Source of the DNA: an uncultured bacterium
Lineage (GTDB): Bacteria > Patescibacteriota > Minisyncoccia > UBA6257 > 2-01-FULL-56-20
Direction: 5' to 3'
Length of the DNA stretch: 64,000 bases
NCBI GenBank assembly: GCA_963705915.1
Contig: OY970126.1
Coordinates: 408,616-472,615 of the forward strand
Shown: in pieces, positions 548-52,995 of the stretch
Layout of the letters: each line of letters opens with the position of its first letter
Numbering within the stretch: position 1 is the stretch's first letter
Translations under genes and position numbers: made by a program
Notes under the pieces: generated by a model
Told to the model about the DNA's origin: nothing
Database searches by the model: none
Seen by the model: the letters and a program-made list of their open reading frames with translations, nothing else

Positions 548-1600
548 CTAGCCGGCGGCAACGCCTACGCCCGCTGCCCGAGCCTGCCGTTTACCCATCC
601 TCTTGGGTTCAATCCCGAGGTCTTCTAATGTGTAAAGCAAAGTGCGGTACGAAATACTGAGTAAAGATGCCGCCGCTTTGCGGTTCCACTTGCATTGGAC
701 AAGAGCCTTCGTGATAAACGGACGCTCAAAATCTCGCCTGATGAGTTCCCGCGCTTTTTGTAGAGAGAAACCGAGAGGAATTTCCTCTCTTCCAAAAACC
801 ACTGCATGCAGACCTTGAAGATCTTGATCCTCCCCTATGGCCGCAAATGGCTTCTCGGAAAAATGGATGTGCTCAAGTTGTATCTCTTCCGATTCATCCA
901 TCTTTGCGAGCGCCTTGGCTTCGGACAAGACATTCTGCAGTTCTCGAACATTGCCCGGCCAGCCGTAGTGCAGAAGGACGTTTTTTGCCGGTTGAGCGAT
1001 GGGGAAACCCTGCGCGACTTCCCTCGCAATGATGAGAATATCGCTCCGGCGATCGCGTAGTGGCGGGATAACGATGTTCAAGGCGTTGATTCGGTAAAAT
1101 AAATCCTTCCGAAATTTTTTCTCCCGAACCAGCCCTGACAAGTTTTGGTTGGTGGCAGCGACGATCCGAACGTTGATGGTCTTCGCCTTCGCGCTCCCAA
1201 TCATCCGTACTTCTCGATTACAGTTTCCCGCTTCACTCAGGAACCGGAGTAGCCTGGTCTGCAAATCGCAGGGCATGTCTCCAATCTCATCCAGGAAGAG
1301 AGTCCCTCTATCTGCGGCGGCGAAGATCCCCTCGTAACGAGCCGCACTCGTGAATGAACCCTTCGTGTGACCGAAGAACTCAGACTCGATGAGGCTGTCG
1401 GGAATCGACGAACAATCTGTTGGAATATAGGGTTGCTCGGATCGGTCGCTCACTTCGTGGATAAGCCTTGCAACCATTTCTTTTCCTGTGCCGGTCTCAC
1501 CTTGTATCAACACGGTAACCGGCTCTCGCGCAAAAACAGCAATCTTCTCTCGTATTGCGTGCGCAGCATCACTTTCTCCCAAGAACTCTCGTAACGGCAT
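548..1600 (-). CDS. Sigma-54-dependent transcriptional activator (AAA+ sigma54-interaction domain + C-terminal Fis-type HTH; no receiver domain)
   Basis: GETGTGKE Walker A, GAFTGA-region-like ESEFFGH, DEIGDMP Walker B, RFLSEAG, LFYRINALNIVIPPLRDR, WPGNVRELQN, C-terminal HTH (AAASLLSISYRTLLYTLEDLGIEP). Start placed at ATG 1600 (MPLREFLG...) preceded by GGGGGAGGA SD rather than track ATG 1669. Confidence 0.8.
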   Translation of the reverse strand: MPLREFLGESDAAHAIREKIAVFAREPVTVLIQGETGTGKEMVARLIHEVSDRSEQPYIPTDCSSIPDSLIESEFFGHTKGSFTSAARYEGIFAAADRGTLFLDEIGDMPCDLQTRLLRFLSEAGNCNREVRMIGSAKAKTINVRIVAATNQNLSGLVREKKFRKDLFYRINALNIVIPPLRDRRSDILIIAREVAQGFPIAQPAKNVLLHYGWPGNVRELQNVLSEAKALAKMDESEEIQLEHIHFSEKPFAAIGEDQDLQGLHAVVFGREEIPLGFSLQKARELIRRDFERPFITKALVQCKWNRKAAASLLSISYRTLLYTLEDLGIEPKRMGKRQARAAGVGVAAG

Positions 1601-1685
1601 AGTATCCTCCCCCGGGACTAATTTTTTACTTACTCCCTTCCTTATAGCTCCGTTGCGTGCCGCCGTCAATCGCGTGAAAAGTCCG

Positions 1686-1694
1686 TGCTACAAT
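1686..1694 (+). promoter_or_regulatory. Extended -10 element TGCTACAAT 6 nt upstream of htrA ATG (leaderless-type promoter)
   Basis: tgctacaat at 1686-1694; ATG at 1701; no SD between. Confidence 0.3.
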
Positions 1695-1700
1695 AATTTT

Positions 1701-2717
1701 ATGGATGACCGCCGCGTCATTAAAATTATCAAACGGGTTATGCCCGCCGTTGTTTCGATTGCCATCGCAAAACACCTGGAAGATCTCGAGAAAGAAATGC
1801 CAAAGGAAATGTATCCTTCGTTGCGGGTAGACATGGCAGACCGGAACGGCCTTGTGCAAGTTGGCGGCGGATCGGGTTTCATCGTCGACGCAAGCGGCCT
1901 CGTCATGACGAACAAGCACGTGATCGACGACGTAAAGGCGGAATACACCGTGATCTTGAACGATGGCCGCTCGTTTCCTTCCAAGTTATTGAGTCGCGAC
2001 CCGATAAACGACGTCGCCATTTTGAAGATTGAGCAAACTGGACTTCCCTATCTCAAGCTTGGCGACGCCTCGAGGCTCGAACTCGGACAGAGCCTGATTG
2101 CGATCGGCAATGCACTCGGCATGTTCCGCAATACGGTATCGCTCGGCATCGTCTCGGGTTTGTCACGTTCGATTTCAGCGCAAGCGGACCCGAGTGCGCC
2201 ACCGCAAGAAATGCGCGGCCTCATACAAACCGACGCCGCGATCAACCCTGGCAATTCAGGCGGCCCGCTCGTTGATTCCAACGGCCTCGTTGTTGGCGTG
2301 AACGCCGCGATCGTCTCCGGCGCGCACAGCATTGGTTTTGCGATCCCCGTGAACGCCGCGCGGCGCGACCTCGATGACATCCGCCGTTATGGCCGTATCC
2401 GCCGGCCGCTTCTCGGCGTACGCTACGTTATGATCGATGCCGACTACAAAGCAAAAATGAAATTGTCCGTTGACCACGGCGCGCTCGTGATGCGCGAAAG
2501 CGAGCACGATTACGCCGTCGTTCCTGGAAGTCCCGCCGACAAAGCCGGCATCCGCGACAAAGATATTATCCTCACATTCAACGGCAAACGCCTCGATCGC
2601 GACCACCCGATCCAGGATTTCTTGGAGGATATGAATGTCGGCGACGAGGTTGAACTGGTATTCTTGCGCGAAAACGAACAACGCGCGGCGAAAGTGACGC
2701 TCGGCGAGAGGAAATAA
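1701..2717 (+). CDS. htrA: HtrA/DegP-family trypsin-like serine protease with C-terminal PDZ domain
   Basis: Catalytic triad contexts TNKHVI (His), DVAILKI (Asp), GNSGGPLV (Ser); PDZ-like C-terminus; upstream part of track ORF (1488-1700) overlaps the divergent regulator and is likely not coding. No obvious signal peptide from 1701, start uncertain. Confidence 0.8.
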   Translation: MDDRRVIKIIKRVMPAVVSIAIAKHLEDLEKEMPKEMYPSLRVDMADRNGLVQVGGGSGFIVDASGLVMTNKHVIDDVKAEYTVILNDGRSFPSKLLSRDPINDVAILKIEQTGLPYLKLGDASRLELGQSLIAIGNALGMFRNTVSLGIVSGLSRSISAQADPSAPPQEMRGLIQTDAAINPGNSGGPLVDSNGLVVGVNAAIVSGAHSIGFAIPVNAARRDLDDIRRYGRIRRPLLGVRYVMIDADYKAKMKLSVDHGALVMRESEHDYAVVPGSPADKAGIRDKDIILTFNGKRLDRDHPIQDFLEDMNVGDEVELVFLRENEQRAAKVTLGERK

Positions 2718-2723
2718 TTGTGG

Positions 2724-2755
2724 ATAAAAAAAGCCGCCCTTACGAAAGACGGCTT
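2724..2755 (-). terminator. Putative rho-independent terminator after the sigma region-4-like gene
   Basis: Minus strand: AAGCCG-13nt loop-CGGCTT followed by TTTTTTTATCC. Confidence 0.35.
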
Positions 2756-2769
2756 GACCGCAGACCAAA

Positions 2770-3150
2770 TTATATGATCCGTTTTCGAGATTTGAGACCG
2801 AGCGCTTGCATCGCCCACTCCTCAGCCTCGAACCGATATGCTATTTTTTCCTGAGCCGCGTAGAGTGCTTTCGTGATTTCATAAGGCGGCTTGTTGAGAG
2901 CGGCGGCGAGCTCATTGATCTCAAGGGTGACTCGTTCTGCATTGAGTCCGTAGCTTGCTCTCAAAACTACCGCCTCAAGCTCCGTGAGATCCGCCTGTGA
3001 AATGATTTCTCGTATATAGATGGCGCGTAGCAATCTTTCCTCGCCTTCGCCAGCGGCAACGAGAAGCTTCGCTCTCTGCTGTGCCCGCAAATACTTCAAC
3101 AACTTTTCTTCTTCTTTGGATCTCTCGATTTTCTCACTTTTCTTTTTCAA
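2770..3150 (-). CDS. Small sigma-70 region-4-like HTH protein (about 126 aa)
   Basis: C-terminal LTELEAVVLRASYGLNAERVTLEINELAAALNKPPYEITKALYAAQEKI resembles sigma-70 region 4; start assigned to TTG at 3150 preceded by GAGGAGG SD (track ATG 3327 would overlap the upstream gene). Confidence 0.45.
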   Translation of the reverse strand: MKKKSEKIERSKEEEKLLKYLRAQQRAKLLVAAGEGEERLLRAIYIREIISQADLTELEAVVLRASYGLNAERVTLEINELAAALNKPPYEITKALYAAQEKIAYRFEAEEWAMQALGLKSRKRII

Positions 3151-3190
3151 CGAGGTCCTCCTCGAATGGGAATCTTGCCAGATTATATCA

Positions 3191-4183
3191 CTAATATGAA
3201 TAGGAGTCAACAAGCAGGCCGTTGCGGTCGTAGAGATAGACGTTGTCGTGATACGGATTGAGAACGCTGCTGCCGGTCCACGCCCACCATTGGTTCGATA
3301 GGAAATTAGGATCACTCTCGTGTGCATTGAAGCAGCCGGTGTAATTCATCTGGTCGAGATAGTTCACGCATGCATAATCGTTTGGCGGAATTTCCGGGCT
3401 ATAGGTGTTTGGCACGGTGCATGCAGGAATGGAAAGGATATAATTTTGGCACCCGCCGCTCAAATTCGAAATTTGCGATTGATTGATGTAGGGGCAATTG
3501 AGCGGTAACGCCGGATTGGTACGCAAATCGTTTTGCAAATAGCCGATGCATTCATTGAGGCGAAGATTGATCGTGCCTGCTGACGAATAGAGATAGAGCG
3601 TCTGGTCATTGGCAAGTTCGATATCGCTCGGCGCGGTTAATCCAGAGGGCTGATAGAAATTGACTGCCTGCGGGATATATTCGCTGCCACCATTCGCAAC
3701 GATTTTCCATCCGGTCACGTCGACGGTTTCGTTTTGAGTAAAGCTCGTGTAGAGCGTGACCTCACCGGAAGAACCGTAGCCACCCGGGAGCACACTGCCG
3801 AATAATATCTCGTGGAAAAACGGCGAGAGCTGTGCAACGGTAAAGCCTGCGGGGACGTCGTACGGATTCACGTTAGGATTTCCTCCGGTCGTGGATGCTT
3901 CCCCTCCTGTGTACGGTCCAATACTCGTCGGCGGAACAGTATTCAAATTATTCGAACCAGAACCGCTCGGTGGTCCGTTCGGCACGCCAAAGCCGGGTGG
4001 CGTCGAAGAAAAGGCCGACGACGAAGCGTTGAGCGCCGGGAAGAGCGAGCTCAATCCTGAAGTGCCGCTCGTCACAAGCCCCGAATTCCAGAGATACAAA
4101 ATGACGCCGGCAATGACAACGAGGAGAAGAATCCCCCAGATTTTGCCGCCCATCGTGCTGCCTTCGCCGCCGCCGTGTGCCAT
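3191..4183 (-). CDS. Secreted/membrane-anchored hypothetical protein: N-terminal TM, Gly/Ser/Pro-rich linker, Cys-rich C-terminal beta-domain (possible lamin-tail-domain-like)
   Basis: TM helix WGILLLVVIAGVILYLW; low-complexity G/S/P/T segment; GEVTLYTSF..VDVTGWKIVANGGSEYIPQ reminiscent of LTD; 8 Cys in C-terminal 120 aa. Confidence 0.55.
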   Translation of the reverse strand: MAHGGGEGSTMGGKIWGILLLVVIAGVILYLWNSGLVTSGTSGLSSLFPALNASSSAFSSTPPGFGVPNGPPSGSGSNNLNTVPPTSIGPYTGGEASTTGGNPNVNPYDVPAGFTVAQLSPFFHEILFGSVLPGGYGSSGEVTLYTSFTQNETVDVTGWKIVANGGSEYIPQAVNFYQPSGLTAPSDIELANDQTLYLYSSAGTINLRLNECIGYLQNDLRTNPALPLNCPYINQSQISNLSGGCQNYILSIPACTVPNTYSPEIPPNDYACVNYLDQMNYTGCFNAHESDPNFLSNQWWAWTGSSVLNPYHDNVYLYDRNGLLVDSYSY

Positions 4184-39560: not shown

Positions 39561-40440
39561 CGAAACTCGAAAATGCGCCGATCAAAACGCCGAAGAGCAA
39601 TTCATAGAGAAGCAACTGCGGCAAATGGGTATAGAAATATTGAAACAAATTGAGGCCGGGTATAAATGAATTCATATACGGATTGATGAAGTAGAGGGCT
39701 GGCGCAACAATAATCAAACTCAACGTCGCGGCGATAGCCCCGCAAATCATGCCCTCCACCACATAAGGCCCGCGGACCATGCTATTTGAAGCGCCGACCA
39801 CCCGCATGACACCGATTTCATCGCGGTTCGAATAAATGGCAAGGCGAATGGTGTTGAAGATAACAAGCCCGGCGATAAGCGCGAGCAGGATGGTGAGCAC
39901 AAATCCGCCGGTCTCGACATTGCGCACGATCGTCGCCAATTTATCGATGATATCCTGATTTTCCGTGTAGCTCACCGTGTCGATATAAGGAGAAAGGTTT
40001 GGCGAGGCCAGATAGTCGGCGATCGCAGCATATTGGCTCGGATCTTTTGCCGTGATGTTAAGCGACGCTTCGAGCGGATTGGTGTCGAGCTCATTCAAAG
40101 CCTGCGTCACCGTGGGATCGTTCGCGTGCGTTGCTTCAAAATTTGCGAGCGCCTGGTCGCGGGAGATATACGTGACATTCTGCACCTCGGACAAACTTTG
40201 AAGCGACTGCTGGATATTCAAAATCTGATCTTCCGAAGTGTTCGTGTCGAAATACACACTGATGTCAATCTTGCTCTGGATTGAAGTGGCGGCTGCCTGC
40301 GTCACCACGTTAAAAATGATGAGGCTTGCGAAAACCGTGAGGGCGACGGTCATGATGGCGACCGTTGCGGTTGAAAGCCAGCCGTTGCGCCAGAAATTTT
40401 TGAAACCATAATGAAAAATGCGCGAGATGATGGTGAACAT
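39532..40440 (-). CDS. ftsX: Cell division ABC transporter permease FtsX
   Basis: 4-TM FtsX architecture with large periplasmic loop; immediately downstream of ftsE (ATGA-type junction at 40440). Confidence 0.85.
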   Translation of the reverse strand: MFTIISRIFHYGFKNFWRNGWLSTATVAIMTVALTVFASLIIFNVVTQAAATSIQSKIDISVYFDTNTSEDQILNIQQSLQSLSEVQNVTYISRDQALANFEATHANDPTVTQALNELDTNPLEASLNITAKDPSQYAAIADYLASPNLSPYIDTVSYTENQDIIDKLATIVRNVETGGFVLTILLALIAGLVIFNTIRLAIYSNRDEIGVMRVVGASNSMVRGPYVVEGMICGAIAATLSLIIVAPALYFINPYMNSFIPGLNLFQYFYTHLPQLLLYELLFGVLIGAFSSFVAVRRYLRN

Positions 40441-41123
40441 TAGACTAAAATATATTTTCCTTTTTTCTCATCGCGGATCACGTGGCCTTTATCGAGCGTG
40501 ATCACGCGGCGCTCAAGTGAATTGATCACTTCGCGATCATGGGTTGCAAGCACCACGGTCGTCCCGAGCTGGTTGATCTTTTCGAGCAAGGTCACAATTT
40601 CAAACGTATGAAACGGGTCGAGGTTTCCCGTCGGCTCATCGGCAATCACAACTTCCGGCCGGTGGATCATCGCGCGCGCAATCGCAACGCGCTGGCGTTC
40701 ACCGCCGGAAAGTTCGTTCGGAAAGTTTTTCATTTTATCACCGAGGCCAACCATATCGAGCACCTGGGGTACAAGCTCCATGATTTCCCGTTGGGGCCGG
40801 CCGGCGACTTCAAGCGCAAACGCAACGTTTTCATAGGCATTCTTGGTCGGCAACAGACGAAAATCCTGGAACACAACGCCGATATGTCGGCGGAATGCCG
40901 GAAGGTCGCTGTCCTTAAGTTTGTTCACTTCGTATTGGCCAAAAAAAACACGGCCCTTGCTGGGCTTTTCTTCACCAATAAGAAGCTTGATAACCGTGGA
41001 CTTTCCCGCGCCAGAACGGCCAGCGAGGGAAACGAATTCGCCGGGATCGATTTGGAAATCTACTTCCTCGAGTGCAACGCCGTGGCCGGGATAATGTTTT
41101 GAAACGCCCTGAAAAACGATCAT
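40440..41123 (-). CDS. ftsE: Cell division ABC transporter ATP-binding protein FtsE
   Basis: Walker A GRSGAGKST, signature LSGGERQRVAIARA, Walker B VVIADEPTGNLD; 227 aa. Confidence 0.92.
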   Translation of the reverse strand: MIVFQGVSKHYPGHGVALEEVDFQIDPGEFVSLAGRSGAGKSTVIKLLIGEEKPSKGRVFFGQYEVNKLKDSDLPAFRRHIGVVFQDFRLLPTKNAYENVAFALEVAGRPQREIMELVPQVLDMVGLGDKMKNFPNELSGGERQRVAIARAMIHRPEVVIADEPTGNLDPFHTFEIVTLLEKINQLGTTVVLATHDREVINSLERRVITLDKGHVIRDEKKGKYILV

Positions 41124-41163: not shown

Positions 41164-41240
41164 GCGAAAAGACTCCTGCAGTGCTTTTGCGTCACCCAGT
41201 AAGAACAAGTGACGCAAAAGCACTGCAGGAGTCTTTTCGC
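41164..41240. repeat. Perfect 32-bp inverted repeat with 13-nt loop (77 nt hairpin) between prfB and ftsE; on the minus strand it is followed by a T-tract, so it likely acts as a very strong intrinsic terminator and/or is a palindromic repeat element
   Basis: gcgaaaagactcctgcagtgcttttgcgtcac (41164-41195) / gtgacgcaaaagcactgcaggagtcttttcgc (41209-41240), zero mismatches; minus strand continues TGACTTCCTTTTTTAAAAAT. Confidence 0.7.
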
Positions 41241-41355: not shown

Positions 41356-42415
41356 TTATTTTTCGAGCATTGCCTCGATGAACATATCAATATTACCGTT
41401 GAGCACTTCGTCCACCCTGCTTGTTTCGACTTCGGTGCGGTGATCTTTCACGAGTTGATAGGGATTCAAAACATACGAACGAATCTGATTCCCCCACTCG
41501 GGCTTCACCTTTGTCCTAAGTGCACTCACTTCTTCCACTTTTTCTTTTTCCATCAATTGAAAGAGTTTTGCCTTGAGCAATTTCATCGCATGTTCACGAT
41601 TCTGTTGCTGACTCCGTTCGGCGCGGGCGCTCACGGCGATGCCGGTTGGAATATGCACGATACGCACCGCGGTCTCCACTTTATTAACATTCTGCCCACC
41701 GGGACCGCCGGAACGCGAAAGTTCGAGTTTAAGATCAGACTCGGGAATCTGCAATTTTGATTCTTCGAGTGGCGGCAGATCGGGAATCACTTCGACAAGC
41801 GCAAACGAGGTGTGGCGCAATTTTTTCGGCGAAAATGGCGAGATGCGCACGAGCCGGTGCACGCCGGACTCGTTCTTTAAATAACCGTAGGCGTGGTCGC
41901 CCTTAAGCTCGATAGTCCGCGAGCGCATGTTGTCGTCGATTACTTTAATTTTCCAGCCTCGCGCCTTGGCGTAGCCTTCGTACATCAGCCCGAGCATGCG
42001 GGCCCAATCTTCCGCGTCTTCCCCGCCCGCTCCGGGATACACCGAGAGCACCGCCGCCTGCGCGTCGTAGCGTCCGACGAATAATGTTTCGAGCTCAAGA
42101 TCGCGGAATGCGCGCTTCAATTCGTGAAACTTATTTTCATCGATATTTTTGCCGCCGCTTGTGCCGCCATCGCCTGCGCTTTTGTCGAGTTCCGCAATGC
42201 CTGCTTCTATTTTTCTATACTTCTCGATTTTATCGTTCAAAACACCGAGCTCGCGGATTTTTTCATCAGCTGCTTCGCGATTTTTCCAAAAATCAGCCGA
42301 TGACATTTCGGCGGTAAGTTCCGCGACCCGTTTTTCTTTTCCCGCGATGTCAAAGCCGCCCGCCGAGCCGGCGGGCTTCGTCCTTCAGTTCTTCGAATGA
42401 TTCGATCTTATTCAT
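41356..42415 (-). CDS. prfB: Peptide chain release factor 2 with programmed +1 ribosomal frameshift
   Basis: ORF0 ATG 42415 ... [21 protein letters not shown] then CTT TGA C (TGA at 42352-42350) with upstream GGCGGGCGG SD-like element; +1 frame continues [24 protein letters not shown]... to 41356; SPF motif (RISPFSP) and GGQ ([11 protein letters not shown]). Confidence 0.9.
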
Positions 42416-46137: not shown

Positions 46138-48327
46138 TCAGTTTTCTTCGACGAGCGAATAAAGAATGAGCGACGTCGTATCGTTTGCCGTCGAGTCCTG
46201 ATTTGATACCTGCAAGATCAGGTTTTGGTTCGTGTTCACCGCAACAGCTTGAGACGTCTGATTTTGACCAAGGACATTCGCGCCGTTCAATCCGGAACAC
46301 GAGGCGCAAGCAACCGTGACTGAAGCATTTGAACCGGGAACAGTAAGTGCTGTTATAACAAGGTCCAAACCAAAGCCACATGTGGACGGGAGCGTAATAC
46401 AGGCTTTTCCTGCGACAGAAGAATAGATGGTCGTGGTAGCAGTTCCCGCCTGACGCAATTCAACTCGCAGCGTGTGGGTCGGTTCTGTCGTTGTGGCTAC
46501 GTTTTGAAAGCCAAGCTGTAGCTCAAGCGTTTTATTTTGAAGCAAATAATTCGCCGGGATGGTATATGAAGTCTGAAAAGCGACCTCGCCAGTCCCCTGG
46601 TTCACGCCGGAGATTGTGTCCGATGCAGTCGTACCTCCAGACTTCCACGCCGGAAGCGCGCGCAAGAATATCGTTCGCGGTATGGTGGCGGTGACATTGC
46701 CATCAGCAGTCTCCAAAAGATTGTTCGCCGTGGAATAGCAGATGCTGCCGGATGCCTGGGCACAGCCGCCGCTCACGACGGGAACCTGCAAGAGCGGCGA
46801 CGACGTGGCGAGAATCGATCCGCTAAACGTGGATGTTGCCGCGTATGTGCCCGCACCGCTCACCGTGAGTCCTTGAAGCGCCGTTGCTCCTGTTGTGCCG
46901 AGCGTTCCATAGACCGTGAGCGCGTAGGGCAAACTTGCGCCGCTGCCGGTTGCAATGCCGAGGTTAGATTGGAAAGCAAAATTACCGGCAGCAAATGTGT
47001 TCGCCGCAACCTGGTTTGCAGAAATTGTGCCACCCAAATATTGGTTTGCAACATAAATACTTCCCGACGGCTCGATGGTCGAGGTGCCGACGCCGAGGCC
47101 ATAAAGCGTGTAGGTGTCGGTGCCGTTCGCCTGCAAGCTCGATGTGGTGAGCGCGGAACCGCTGCTCCAGAGGGAATAATAATTTGATTGGCCGCCGGAG
47201 AGTGACCCCCCGCCGCACGTGGTCGTACCGACAGCGCCGCCGAGCCCCACGATATCTAAACAATTCACTCCAATACTCTGAGCCAAACCAGTAATATCCA
47301 AATTGGTTGTCGTGAGAAGTCCAACGTTCGTATGTCCGTTCGACGTGATCGAACCGGTGAAATAGGCGTTGCCCGACGGCTCAATGGTCGAGGTGCCAAC
47401 GCCGAGGCCGTAGAGCGTGTAGGTGTCGGTGCCATTCGCCTGCAAGCTCGATGTGGTGAGTGCGGAACCGCTGCTCCAGAGGGAATAATAGTTCGATTGG
47501 CCGCCGGAGAGCGATCCACCACCGCCGCAGGTTGTCGTCACAACCGCGCCAACAGTGTTCACGCTCAAACATGGACTGCCCGAACTCCCGAGCGCCGTGA
47601 TTGAAAGGTTTGTCGTCGTCGCATTGCCGTTCACCGTTGTACTGCCAAGTGTCGATACGCCGCCGATCACGCCGAACGTGCCGTAGTCGGAAAGCGTGTA
47701 CGGCAGGCCAACTTGGCTCGCCGTTGCAACGCCAAGACTTGTTCCTGTGGGAAATGCATAATTCCCGCCACCGGTGAGCGATCCGAAAACCCCGCCAGTC
47801 ACATTGCCCGCCGCCACATTGCCGGAGCAGGATCCGCCGCACGTGATATTTCCTGACGCTGAAAGATTTCCTTGCACGGTGAGCTGACCGGCGGTCATCG
47901 TCGTCGTGCCCACGCTCACCGCGCCGTCGTTGCGCGTATAAATGACCGGCGTTCCATTCGATTCCAAAATCTCTAATCCGTACGCCGAACTATCCGTCGT
48001 CGATCCAACGATCATAACCCGTACGCCGGTTACGCCGCTCACGGGCGACGAAGTCCCCACGCTGATATCATTCGCTACGTCGACGCCAATCGCTCCGTTA
48101 CCGACGCCTGCAGAATTATTGCCGGGGCCGTTGAAGGCGCTCGCAACCGCCCACGAAAACATACCGGCGATGAATGCACCGATAAAGATACCCGCCAAAA
48201 ACTGAAATGGCCGTTGATCGCGGCGCTTCCGTTTTTTTCTTGCAACCGTTTTTTTGACGACACGCTTCTTCACTTCACAATAATATAGCCAATCGGACCC
48301 TTCGCCGGGCCGCCGCACGATGCGCAA
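46138..48327 (-). CDS. Large membrane-anchored Gly/Thr/Ser-rich repetitive surface protein (putative adhesin/S-layer-like), 729 aa
   Basis: Basic N-terminus (KKRVVKKTVARKKRKRRDQR) + TM (FLAGIFIGAFIAGMFSWAVA); low-complexity G/T/S/N-rich beta-rich body with a near-identical ~105-aa internal tandem repeat (TTTCGGG(G)SLSGGQSNYYSLWSSGSALTTSSLQANGTDTYTLYGLGVGTSTIEPSG...); start overlaps upstream gene by 57 nt so true start may be internal. Confidence 0.55.
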   Translation of the reverse strand: MRIVRRPGEGSDWLYYCEVKKRVVKKTVARKKRKRRDQRPFQFLAGIFIGAFIAGMFSWAVASAFNGPGNNSAGVGNGAIGVDVANDISVGTSSPVSGVTGVRVMIVGSTTDSSAYGLEILESNGTPVIYTRNDGAVSVGTTTMTAGQLTVQGNLSASGNITCGGSCSGNVAAGNVTGGVFGSLTGGGNYAFPTGTSLGVATASQVGLPYTLSDYGTFGVIGGVSTLGSTTVNGNATTTNLSITALGSSGSPCLSVNTVGAVVTTTCGGGGSLSGGQSNYYSLWSSGSALTTSSLQANGTDTYTLYGLGVGTSTIEPSGNAYFTGSITSNGHTNVGLLTTTNLDITGLAQSIGVNCLDIVGLGGAVGTTTCGGGSLSGGQSNYYSLWSSGSALTTSSLQANGTDTYTLYGLGVGTSTIEPSGSIYVANQYLGGTISANQVAANTFAAGNFAFQSNLGIATGSGASLPYALTVYGTLGTTGATALQGLTVSGAGTYAATSTFSGSILATSSPLLQVPVVSGGCAQASGSICYSTANNLLETADGNVTATIPRTIFLRALPAWKSGGTTASDTISGVNQGTGEVAFQTSYTIPANYLLQNKTLELQLGFQNVATTTEPTHTLRVELRQAGTATTTIYSSVAGKACITLPSTCGFGLDLVITALTVPGSNASVTVACASCSGLNGANVLGQNQTSQAVAVNTNQNLILQVSNQDSTANDTTSLILYSLVEEN
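47053..47535. repeat. Intragenic tandem direct repeat (two ~175-nt near-identical copies, period ~308 nt) inside the 46138-48327 gene
   Basis: 47053-47225 vs 47361-47535 about 93-95% identical at nucleotide level (e.g. ...ggtcgaggtgcc[g/a]acgccgaggcc[a/g]ta[a/g]agcgtgtaggtgtcggtgcc[g/a]ttcgcctgcaagctcgatgtggtgag[c/t]gcggaaccgctgctccagagggaataata...). Confidence 0.65.
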
Positions 48328-52143: not shown

Positions 52144-52260
52144 AAAAGGCCTCCTGCGCGAAATTATACGTCGTAGTATGAAAGATGTCAAATACGGTTC
52201 CCTTTGAGACTTGCCAATTTTAGAGAAACATGTTACCATATCGTCCAGAGGAGACACCAT

Positions 52261-52560
52261 ATGCAATGCATAGTTCACGTCTTGCTCAAAACCGGGAAAA
52301 CCCGCGGGGCATCTTGTTCCTTAACAAGAACAATAGATTTCCCATTTCTCCCTGCTCGAGGCATGATATTATCGCTCGATGTTTCTGGGGAAAACAGCCA
52401 CGCTACCCCACATGCCCACATCAGGGAAATTTGGTACCACGAGAATTCTCGGAAAATCGATGTCTGGTGTGATATATGGGCATCTGACAGTGACGACTTC
52501 AGGTTTAACAAACAAGTTGTCAAGATCGCGAAGCTAGATCCGAGATGGGACCTGGAGTAG
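52261..52560 (+). CDS. Hypothetical protein (99 aa), divergent from the small acidic ORF/ECF sigma
   Basis: AGGAG SD 7 nt upstream of ATG 52261; followed by strong terminator; no recognisable domain. Confidence 0.4.
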   Translation: MQCIVHVLLKTGKTRGASCSLTRTIDFPFLPARGMILSLDVSGENSHATPHAHIREIWYHENSRKIDVWCDIWASDSDDFRFNKQVVKIAKLDPRWDLE

Positions 52561-52575
52561 GATGACAACCTGAGG

Positions 52576-52614
52576 ACGCCGCAGTGAAGTTTTTTCACTG
52601 CGGCGTATTTTTTC
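52576..52614 (+). terminator. Rho-independent terminator
   Basis: ACGCCGCAGTGAA-GTTTTT-TTCACTGCGGCGT (13-bp stem) followed by ATTTTTT. Confidence 0.65.
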
Positions 52615-52641
52615 GTTGTAGCCCCACGGGGAATCGCCCCG
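52615..52641 (-). repeat. Partial duplicate of tRNA-Glu 3' end (T-arm + acceptor 3' strand + trailer): att-like direct repeat
   Basis: Minus-strand CGGGGCGATTCCCCGTGGGGCTACAAC vs tRNA-Glu 3' half CGGGGTTCGATTCCCCGTGGGGCTA+CGACAAC (25/27 identical, 2-nt deletion in T-loop). Confidence 0.55.
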
Positions 52642-52741
52642 CGGCTCAAACGCTCGCCGTCGCTCGCGTTTGGCCTGGGCACCGCCTCGCGGATTTTTTC
52701 TGCTGAAAAAATCCGCTCCGGCGGTTCGATTCCTCCATGAA

Positions 52742-52862
52742 ACAAACAACAAACAAGAAAGCTCCTGAGAAGGGCTCTCGGAGGCACGAAGGTGCCGAGA
52801 GCGGAGCGGCTCGCGCAGCAGCGCGAGACCGCGTACCTTCTCAGGAGCTTTCTTGTTTGTTG
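52742..52862. repeat. Imperfect long inverted repeat (about 30-nt arms) enclosing additional short palindromes
   Basis: aaacaaacaacaaacaagaaagctcctgagaagg (52742-52775) vs ccttctcaggagctttcttgtttgttgt (52834-52862); inner CTCGCGC-AGCA-GCGCGAG hairpin; neighbouring 11-bp palindrome GCGGATTTTTT/AAAAAATCCGC at 52691-52718 and T-arm-like GGTTCGATTCC at 52725-52735. Confidence 0.5.
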
Positions 52863-52865
52863 TCG

Positions 52866-52937
52866 TAGCCCCACGGGGAATCGAACCCCGATTTACGCCG
52901 TGAAAGGGCGCTGTCCTAGCCATTAGACGATGAGGCC
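52866..52937 (-). tRNA. tRNA-Glu (anticodon TTC)
   Basis: D-arm GTCT-AATGGCTA-GGAC and anticodon arm GCGCC-CTTTCAC-GGCGT nearly identical to E. coli tRNA-Glu; T-loop TTCGATT; acceptor GGCCTCA/TGGGGCT contains G1.U72 and U5.G68 wobbles (slightly atypical). Confidence 0.7.
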
Positions 52938-52966
52938 AATCAGTGTGCCTCTCATTTAACCGGAAA

Positions 52967-52995
52967 TTGACGGGAAAGACAAGTTCCTCTATGGT
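52967..52995 (+). promoter_or_regulatory. Putative sigma-70 promoter TTGACG-N17-TATGGT for the 53035 gene
   Basis: ttgacg (52967-52972), 17-nt spacer, tatggt (52990-52995); ATG at 53035. Confidence 0.35.

Follow-up and report, generated by a model that had tools for sequence, protein, structure and literature searches.

In this report, we examine the stretch that directly follows the tRNA-Glu gene in a 64,000-nucleotide segment of contig OY970126.1 (the window, by which we mean the whole of that segment), which comes from an uncultured bacterium of the Patescibacteria, also called the Candidate Phyla Radiation (CPR). An intact tRNA-Glu(UUC) is encoded at 52865-52937 on the minus strand (ARAGORN; 60.2 bits with the Rfam tRNA model). 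Directly 3' of it lies a folded stretch of about 250 nt that ends in a second copy of the 3' strand of the tRNA, and we will refer to this stretch as the module. Read on the tRNA strand, the order of the elements is the tRNA-Glu, a long hairpin, a strand complementary to the T arm (the anti-T strand), two further hairpins and, finally, the copy of the T-stem and acceptor 3' strand. A first interpretation of the locus, made from the letters alone (the sequence-only reading), had taken this arrangement for an attachment (att) site or for the scar of an excised element. The module looks like an undescribed conserved RNA element rather than such a scar.

The same arrangement is found elsewhere. 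A metagenome scan with the 19-mer shared by the tRNA and its distal copy returned at least 120 tRNA-Glu loci, which we designate by L and a number. Taking the matches listed together with L147, the module layout is present at 10 of 121 tRNA-Glu genes, that is, in the window and in nine other contigs of uncultured bacteria. L147 was found independently, through synteny around the gene of a GT2-like glycosyltransferase (hereafter GT2), and not through the sequence of the repeat.

Anatomy of the module

The tRNA-Glu gene does not encode the terminal CCA, which is encoded by tRNA-Arg only among the five tRNA genes of the window, and the acceptor stem of the tRNA contains two wobble pairs, G1.U72 and U5.G68. 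The long hairpin that follows, or spacer hairpin (52746-52863, minus strand), begins 2 nt past the discriminator base. It was recognized as an inverted repeat and through its homology to the spacer of L147. Its stem is made of 28 perfect Watson-Crick pairs, with arms at 52746-52773 and 52836-52863 and 62 nt between them; this is the inverted repeat that the sequence-only reading had described as imperfect and roughly 30 nt long. The cap consists of two GC-rich sub-hairpins with loops UGCU and CUUC. After the stem comes a U-rich but interrupted tract (UUGUUUCAU in the window and UUUUCUUCUCU in L147), of which L100 has no equivalent, and the spacer hairpin was not flagged by a simple terminator scan.

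The anti-T strand, GGAAUCGAACC (52723-52733, minus strand), came out of an inverted-repeat search and is the exact complement of nucleotides 52-62 of tRNA-Glu. Read on the plus strand, the same positions give the T-arm-like GGTTCGATTCC, inverted with respect to the tRNA, as had already been noticed from the letters; it has 2 matches in the window, for 0.08 expected. The core of the anti-T strand, GAAUCGAA, is invariant in nine of the ten module loci. Two helices, both on the minus strand and both drawn from an alignment of four sequences, complete the interior of the module. The first, P1 (ACCGCC/GGCGGU, 52681-52725), encloses hairpin H3, which is the GCGGATTTTTT palindrome, with a loop AGCA and a stem of 12 bp (arms at 52689-52700 and 52705-52716), where 11 bp had been counted before. 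The second, P2 (GCCC/GGGC, 52636-52680), encloses hairpin H4, whose stem, AAACGC/GCGUUU, varies and whose loop, GAGCGACGGCGA, is conserved. Between the H3/P1 helix and H4 stands GGUGCCCAGGCC.

The loop of H3 (52701-52704) is complementary, on the tRNA strand, to the loop UGCU of the first of the spacer sub-hairpins (around 52813-52816), and the two may form a loop-loop contact; the equivalent of L147, AGUA/UGCU, still pairs via a G.U, and the complementarity is not kept in L061. A pseudo-tRNA on the plus strand around GGCGGTTCGATTCC was also considered. It was rejected, as it has no acceptor partner, as its T-stem-like pairing is lost in L061 and L088, and as the 12-bp hairpin cannot be an anticodon arm.

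The module ends at 52618-52636 (minus strand) with the distal copy of tRNA-Glu nucleotides 56-74, CGATTCCCCGTGGGGCTAC, which is identical to the tRNA at 19 of 19 positions. Read from 52636 to 52618, it is CGAUUCCCCGUGGGGCUAC and takes in the T loop's 3' part, the 3' strands of the T stem and of the acceptor, A73 and C74. The CGGGG on its 5' side also matches the tRNA, provided that a 2-nt gap is allowed for the missing U54 and U55. From the end of the tRNA-Glu to the start of the distal copy there are 229 nt, and both copies are on the same strand. The sequence-only reading had thus seen a real repeat in its correct orientation, and its figures (a 27-nt copy with 25 identities, about 225 bp away) are replaced by those given here. 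Within the 64 kb there are just two occurrences of the 19-mer, for 0.01 expected by chance. The earlier impression that the intervening DNA is unusually structured holds as well: against shuffled sequences, the fold of the whole stretch has a z-score of -13.9 on the tRNA strand and of -11.6 on the other strand.

Conserved pairing and the distal 3' strand

The part of the module that follows the spacer, or block, was aligned for four related sequences, and its pairing is maintained in spite of substitutions. In this alignment, 98.2% of the cells are paired, as against 37-50% in slid controls, and the figure reaches 100% in the P1/H3 region. Of the nine pairs that have changed on both sides, five belong to H3, three to H4 and one to P1, which also has a G.U pair; the loop sequence of H4 is conserved while its stem covaries. 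In 500 shuffles, the observed value was never reached on four of the five measures and was reached four times on the fifth. The comparison of the spacers of the window and L147, which are homologous, gives the same picture: 13 pairs of the outer stem have changed on both sides, with no one-sided change and no broken pair, and 5 further compensatory pairs are found in the cap, which makes 18 in all. The strand can also be told from these data, since all four G.U cells of the block alignment fit the tRNA strand only. In each of the ten loci, that strand also gives the block the better fold, by 1.4-8.4 kcal/mol, and in L105 a canonical terminator on the tRNA strand stands after the distal CCA.

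Compensatory substitutions and a G.U strand bias, the two signs that a generic test for structured RNA looks for, were both found in these alignments of four and two sequences. Judged from its sequence, the module looks like a conserved structured RNA element encoded on the tRNA strand. A scan against Rfam 15, including the models for group I introns, tmRNA (transfer-messenger RNA), viral tRNA-like structures (TLS), ribozymes and ROOL/GOLLD, gave only the tRNA above threshold; the other matches are long hairpins hitting microRNA or small RNA (sRNA) models, all of them below threshold. Group I introns, other ribozymes and tmRNA were rejected as identities of the module for this lack of an Rfam match, and literature searches found no published description of the layout.

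Conservation of the second 3' strand is as tight as that of the tRNA itself. At positions 58-74, the distal copy is identical to the tRNA of its own locus in 9-10 of the 10 loci, and the edges of this identity are sharp at 58 and 74, since it drops to 1-6 of 10 at positions 54-56 and to 2-7 of 10 after C74. It persists in subfamilies whose internal hairpins are unrelated. L147 is particularly informative about the nature of the constraint. Its tRNA differs from that of the window by two pair changes, C4-G69 to U4-A69 and C49-G65 to G49-C65, and the 3' members of both (G65C and G69A), which compensate C49G and C4U in the 5' half of the tRNA, are present in both copies, while the CGGGG on the 5' side of the distal copy is unchanged. 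The distal strand therefore follows the 5' half of the tRNA and not a local partner. A partner for the distal acceptor strand was sought within the block and none was found; GGUGCCCAGGCC, in particular, is invariant though the acceptor of L147 changes. A CCA is encoded after the distal end in 6 of the 10 loci and after the proximal end in 3. The idea that it would substitute for an absent CCA-adding enzyme was rejected because most tRNA genes of this genome lack CCA.

Relatives and gene neighbourhood

The ten loci fall into several subfamilies. The window, L134, L147 and L061 have blocks that are 80-93% identical; the block of the window is 93% identical to that of L134, and between these genomes the identity of GT2 is only 64-78%. 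A second subfamily comprises L100 and L068, other variants are found in L088, L105 and L050, and L033 has a minimal module with no anti-T strand. The internal hairpins share no sequence between subfamilies. The genes 3' of the modules are mutually unrelated (Band_7, ParB-like, PG-binding, a LexA-methylase fusion, TrpR and one insertion sequence (IS) transposase). No recombinase or integrase was found beside any of the 10 modules, and the only related match is the IS-type rve transposase at L061, where an open reading frame (ORF) of the rve family (DDE) at 410-1294 starts 12 nt past the distal copy.

Relatives fetched through their TsaD and GT2 homologues share a common neighbourhood, in which TsaD is followed by a small ORF, the tRNA-Glu, variable genes and GT2. 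The comparison that the sequence-only reading had called for gave both occupied and empty tRNA-Glu sites, and the stretch 3' of the tRNA-Glu is variable. In L010, L013, L143, L150, L152 and L153, the next gene directly follows the tRNA-Glu, with no module. The empty L143 has a tRNA identical to that of the module-bearing L147 and a GT2 that is 88% identical, and the equally empty L153 has the same pair of genes for an ECF sigma factor and GT2, and the same synteny, as the window. The adjacent genes had been suspected of arriving together with the element. However, GT2 and the ECF sigma factor (with RecG or the cupredoxin in some cases) adjoin the tRNA-Glu and TsaD in L153, L143 and L146, which are module-free; it follows that these genes did not come in with the module. 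The GC content across 50-57 kb, where a shift might have betrayed foreign DNA, is steady at 0.51-0.53.

Other rearrangements and mobile DNA are seen at this tRNA. In L152, a large serine recombinase of 574 aa (1214-2949, with Resolvase and Recombinase domains) ends inside the tRNA-Glu 3' end and is a genuine mobile element at the same tRNA. In L013, a D12 methylase, a DUF87/TrwB-like ATPase and small ORFs (700-3834) lie directly 3' of the tRNA-Glu, a content that looks plasmid-like or like that of an integrative and conjugative element (ICE). L139 has two 25-nt fragments of a tRNA-Glu 3' end (88-112 and 3260-3285), 3.1 kb apart and with no intact tRNA called, and in L127 (226-377) a tRNA-Glu(CUC) precedes the 3' part of a second tRNA-Glu; these fragments look like ordinary att-type remnants, unlike the structured module. 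The tRNA-Glu segment, with or without module, is inverted with respect to TsaD and GT2 in L007/L008, L134 and L088, and not in the window, L143, L147 or L153. The segment was therefore flipped at least once in the lineage.

Further copies of the module or of its parts were looked for at several levels. The 64-kb window holds no extra module, and across about 150 loci the matches are at tRNA-Glu only. The distal-copy check of 72 other tRNAs gave a single match, at the tRNA-Leu of L069. The only other degenerate copy of a tRNA 3' half in the window is a T arm of tRNA-Ala with 3 mismatches. The 28-nt arm of the spacer has no further copy in the window; in a genome collection that does not include the source genome, it has 6 single matches in unrelated taxa, consistent with chance. 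Termini and a short target-site duplication of the type of miniature inverted-repeat transposable elements are absent, the inverted repeats being internal hairpins and not ends, and the flanking repeat being 19 nt of the tRNA. Two gapped module patterns gave no match in the viral and phage collections, and neither did blastn against phage genomes. A viral origin was rejected, as the five viral contigs concerned carry ordinary complete tRNA-Glu genes, and a match of the block motif in a GC-rich phage lies inside a coding region and is due to chance. A break of Logan contigs in the T stem, which might have passed for a sign of polymorphism, is due to tRNA sequence shared by co-occurring relatives.

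As for the expression signals of the locus, a candidate promoter of the sigma-70 type (TTGTCT, 17 nt, TTAAAT) can be read in the sequence at 52954-52982 on the minus strand, and it ends about 16 nt 5' of the tRNA. A motif of this kind, cttgt.ttt...gtcaatttc.g.ttaaat, is also found 5' of the tRNA-Glu in L010, L013, L143, L147 and L153. The candidate of the window was not flagged by a simple promoter scan, and is likely the promoter of the tRNA-Glu; the scan gave no internal promoter in the module either. On the other side, a terminator scan found an intrinsic terminator on the plus strand at 52576-52614, with a 14-bp stem (hairpin 52576-52606) and a T tract. It serves a convergent ORF of 118 aa (52204-52560) and borders the module, outside it. 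One flank of the locus encodes, according to Pfam, TsaD, TGT, a class I aminoacyl-tRNA synthetase of the Leu/Ile/Val type, PurA and IMPDH, and the other flank encodes an ECF sigma factor, the GT2-like glycosyltransferase, a pilin-like protein, a cupredoxin-like protein and RecG. The nearest homologues of TsaD and GT2 bear source names such as Minisyncoccia, Candidatus Paceibacterota and Liptonbacteria, in keeping with a genome of the Patescibacteria. The absence of an integrase, pointed out from the start, was borne out by a Pfam search, which detected no integrase, resolvase or transposase domain either in the scanned ORFs of at least 130 aa from 39.5 to 63.4 kb or in the smaller ones that adjoin the module.

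Two further repeats of the window deserve a mention. A second very long perfect palindrome, with 32-bp arms and a 13-nt loop, is found at 41164-41240, between an ABC ATPase gene (40440-41123, minus strand) and a peptide chain release factor gene (41356-42306, minus strand; PCRF and RF-1 domains), and long perfect hairpins may be a general intergenic feature of this genome. A direct repeat of 179 nt, 87% identical between 47063-47241 and 47372-47550, lies within a 729-aa ORF (46138-48327, minus strand) that has no Pfam match; it probably reflects the repeated domains of a surface protein.

Competing folds, rival explanations and known systems

When the block is folded alone, the anti-T strand pairs with positions 56'-64' of the distal copy (helix P0), and a three-way junction is formed, with an acceptor-like 3' tail of 11-12 nt. 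In the full transcript, a base-by-base comparison gives the anti-T strand a complementarity of 8-13 bp to the genuine T arm, which always exceeds the 5-9 bp to the distal copy. In the minimum-free-energy fold of the window sequence, which we call fold A, the acceptor 5' strand and the T-stem 5' strand of the tRNA pair with the distal strand. Constrained folding makes fold A more stable than the fold that keeps the normal tRNA (fold N) by 3-10 kcal/mol in 9 of the 10 loci.

We propose that the module is a co-transcribed trailer RNA of the tRNA-Glu, which would offer the tRNA body an alternative 3' strand and make the precursor bistable, and we give this reading a probability of about one half. 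The module would be transcribed on the tRNA strand from the promoter of the tRNA, and the long hairpin would probably act as a leaky terminator and/or as a processing site for a double-strand-specific activity of the RNase III type. In fold N, the normal cloverleaf would form, the anti-T strand would pair with the distal copy (P0) and a single-stranded acceptor-like 3' tail would remain. In fold A, which would be mutually exclusive with fold N, the anti-T strand would capture the tRNA's own T arm, so that the acceptor 5' strand, the D arm, the anticodon arm and the T-stem 5' strand would close on the distal 3' strand. The product would be an extended tRNA-like RNA in which about 230 nt replace the T loop, and what becomes of the tRNA-Glu transcript on maturation would be controlled or diversified by this competition between strands. 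A bolder suggestion, which we put forward as doubtful, is that the gene would in this way yield, besides the ordinary tRNA-Glu, a further and longer tRNA-like RNA, in which the spare distal 3' strand with its CCA would close the tRNA body and the anti-T strand would sequester the tRNA's own T arm and 3' strand. The patchy distribution does not call for mobility, because a deletion between the 19-nt repeats would leave a perfect tRNA gene.

Several points weigh against the proposal of a bistable trailer. Eight of the ten loci were found with the repeat as the search pattern, which forces one copy per locus to match, though not the second. The module is missing in the close relatives L143 and L153, and is therefore dispensable. 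The covariation rests on a small base, with four related sequences for the block and two (window and L147) for the spacer, and the co-variation of the distal copy with the tRNA comes from one lineage, L147, where a single gene-conversion tract could yield it. The perfect 28-bp stem, which is free of G.U pairs, fits a palindrome acting at the DNA level equally well. Transcription past the long hairpin is assumed, and the hairpin with the U-rich sequence present in most loci could terminate most transcripts. Finally, the tRNA would fold first during transcription, and fold A may rarely be formed in vivo.

The main rival, which we regard as unlikely, is a miniature integrative cassette of about 250 bp without integrase, similar to a cis-mobilizable element (CIME) or to a satellite, that would sit in the T loop or 3' end of the tRNA-Glu and be moved in trans by a recombinase whose gene lies elsewhere. 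Such a cassette would carry its own tRNA 3' part, which restores the gene, and its RNA or DNA structure would serve its own mobility or maintenance. It would account for direct repeats placed exactly at the tRNA 3' part, which are a hallmark of tRNA-targeting integration (PMC4383910), as well as for the patchy distribution, with clean empty sites in L143 (compared with L147) and L153, and for the fact that the carriers are not monophyletic by GT2 identity. Real mobile DNA does occur at the 3' flank of the tRNA-Glu in L152 and L013, and recent insertions would make the distal copy match the host tRNA automatically. However, no integrase or recombinase accompanies any of the modules, and the module was never found away from tRNA-Glu, is single-copy in the window and in the roughly 150 loci, and is absent from the viral and phage collections. 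Its distal core lacks a full T loop (5 nt or unrelated bases), and is thus not a symmetric core site with the spacing of the tRNA. Recombination between protein and DNA accounts neither for the anti-T strand being invariant nor for the strand bias of the G.U pairs. In the four closest versions, the truncated junction is the same and the module stays next to tRNA-Glu in the GT2/TsaD neighbourhood, which points to vertical descent.

The scar of the sequence-only reading, which could be the displaced fragment of a lost island or a decayed partial tandem duplicate of the tRNA-Glu, with hairpins that are ordinary terminators of convergent genes, draws on a direct-repeat pattern that formally resembles the work of an integrase and fits textbook attL/attR remnants, on the variable 3' flank with its empty sites in L143 and L153, on the plain remnants of L139 and L127 in the same data, and on the neighbouring hairpin 52576-52606, which is indeed the terminator of a convergent ORF. 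A neutral fragment should decay, yet positions 58-74 are kept in 9-10 of 10 loci amid the turnover around them; 9 compensatory pairs in the block and 18 in the spacer, the GAAUCGAA strand that is invariant across subfamilies and the distal copy that follows the tRNA substitutions in L147 are equally unexpected of a scar. The ten loci with the same layout are not one recently spread sequence, the internal hairpins being unrelated between subfamilies, and neither an integrase next to them nor extra copies of the module in the window and the fetched loci have turned up. The repeat thus belongs to a conserved feature in other genomes, an outcome that the sequence-only reading had itself named as refuting it, a scar of any kind is highly improbable, and the plain scar is essentially excluded because of this conservation. 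It is also very unlikely that the locus produces an antisense RNA on the plus strand, which would start with the complement of the tRNA-Glu 3' end, end at the 28-bp hairpin as its terminator and pair with the tRNA-Glu or its precursor. This hairpin, being strand-symmetric, has U-rich sequence after it on the plus strand too, and an RNA complementary to the tRNA 3' end would likewise give a reason for the distal copy to follow the tRNA. But the G.U pairs of P1, H3 and H4 would become A.C mismatches on the plus strand, on which all 10 blocks fold worse, the terminator 52576-52614 stands on that strand just before the block with no plus-strand promoter found between the two, and the terminator of L105 lies on the tRNA strand right after the distal CCA. 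The least probable explanation is a cluster of palindromes and repeats that would act as DNA, be it as a site related to replication or as a hotspot for recombination or inversion, with no RNA product. The long stems, perfect and free of G.U pairs, the second palindrome with its 32-bp arms and the inverted tRNA-Glu segment of L007/L008, L134 and L088 are all in line with it, whereas the strand-biased G.U pairs, the conserved single-stranded loops, the distal CCA and the strict association with tRNA-Glu are all left unexplained.

Patescibacteria have tiny genomes with little spare DNA, and in a subset of them an essential tRNA gene is nonetheless joined to about 250 nt of tightly constrained structure. 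If the module is an RNA that competes with the tRNA 3' strand, it would represent a new way to control or repurpose a tRNA transcript, and also a new class of RNA in a phylum with very few known non-coding RNAs. The second tRNA-like RNA, if real, would have no described counterpart: it would amount to a tRNA scaffold or switch occurring in nature, and might regulate the supply of tRNA-Glu or give a new processable, perhaps aminoacylated RNA. If the module is instead a miniature cassette without integrase that targets the T loop, its size would be unusually small for a site-specific mobile element. Island finders that treat any tRNA followed by a 3' fragment as an att pair would miscall such loci.

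The known systems that come closest differ from the module in several respects. Displaced tRNA 3' fragments reportedly mark the ends of islands and prophages integrated in tRNA genes (Williams 2002). The module shares with integrated islands an intact tRNA with a downstream direct copy of its 3' part, an identity that extends as far as the tRNA does and breaks off within a few nt of its end, and the existence of occupied and empty sites among relatives. The Islander database likewise treats tRNA 3' fragments as marks of the ends of integrated genomic islands (PMC4383910). Unlike in those islands, there are here 229 nt between the copies, with no integrase and no cargo, and the fragment is constrained, lacks a full T loop and is joined to a covarying insert with a strand antisense to the T arm. 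In the Patescibacteria, tRNA genes can carry group I introns at position 35/36 of the anticodon loop, with a group I catalytic core (PMC13011429). Such introns belong to the same phylum and are also structured insertions of about 250 nt associated with a tRNA, and the anti-T strand of the module spans its would-be junction (52-62) in the order of an internal guide sequence. Here, however, nothing interrupts the tRNA, a block of some 100 nt leaves no room for the core, and the Rfam model Intron_gpI gives no match.

Closer to the RNA that we propose is 3'ETS-leuZ of E. coli, a short sponge RNA derived from a tRNA trailer, which pairs with Hfq-dependent sRNAs. It resembles the module in that a functional RNA is proposed to come from a tRNA trailer and to be released by tRNA processing, but it is short and lacks both the copied acceptor strand and the anti-T strand; the module gives no sign of sRNA pairing. 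With the tRNA-like domain of tmRNA (including the two-piece permuted tmRNA), viral TLS and mascRNA, the module has in common an RNA end in which a T-stem-like helix is combined with the 3' strand of an acceptor, a discriminator and, in many cases, a CCA. The Rfam models of these RNAs score here only on the real tRNA. Like tRNA-derived scaffolds, the tRNA frame of fold A would carry a large insert. The module differs from all these RNAs in that its acceptor 5' strand would be borrowed from the adjacent genuine tRNA, and in that the insert would replace the T loop and not the anticodon arm.

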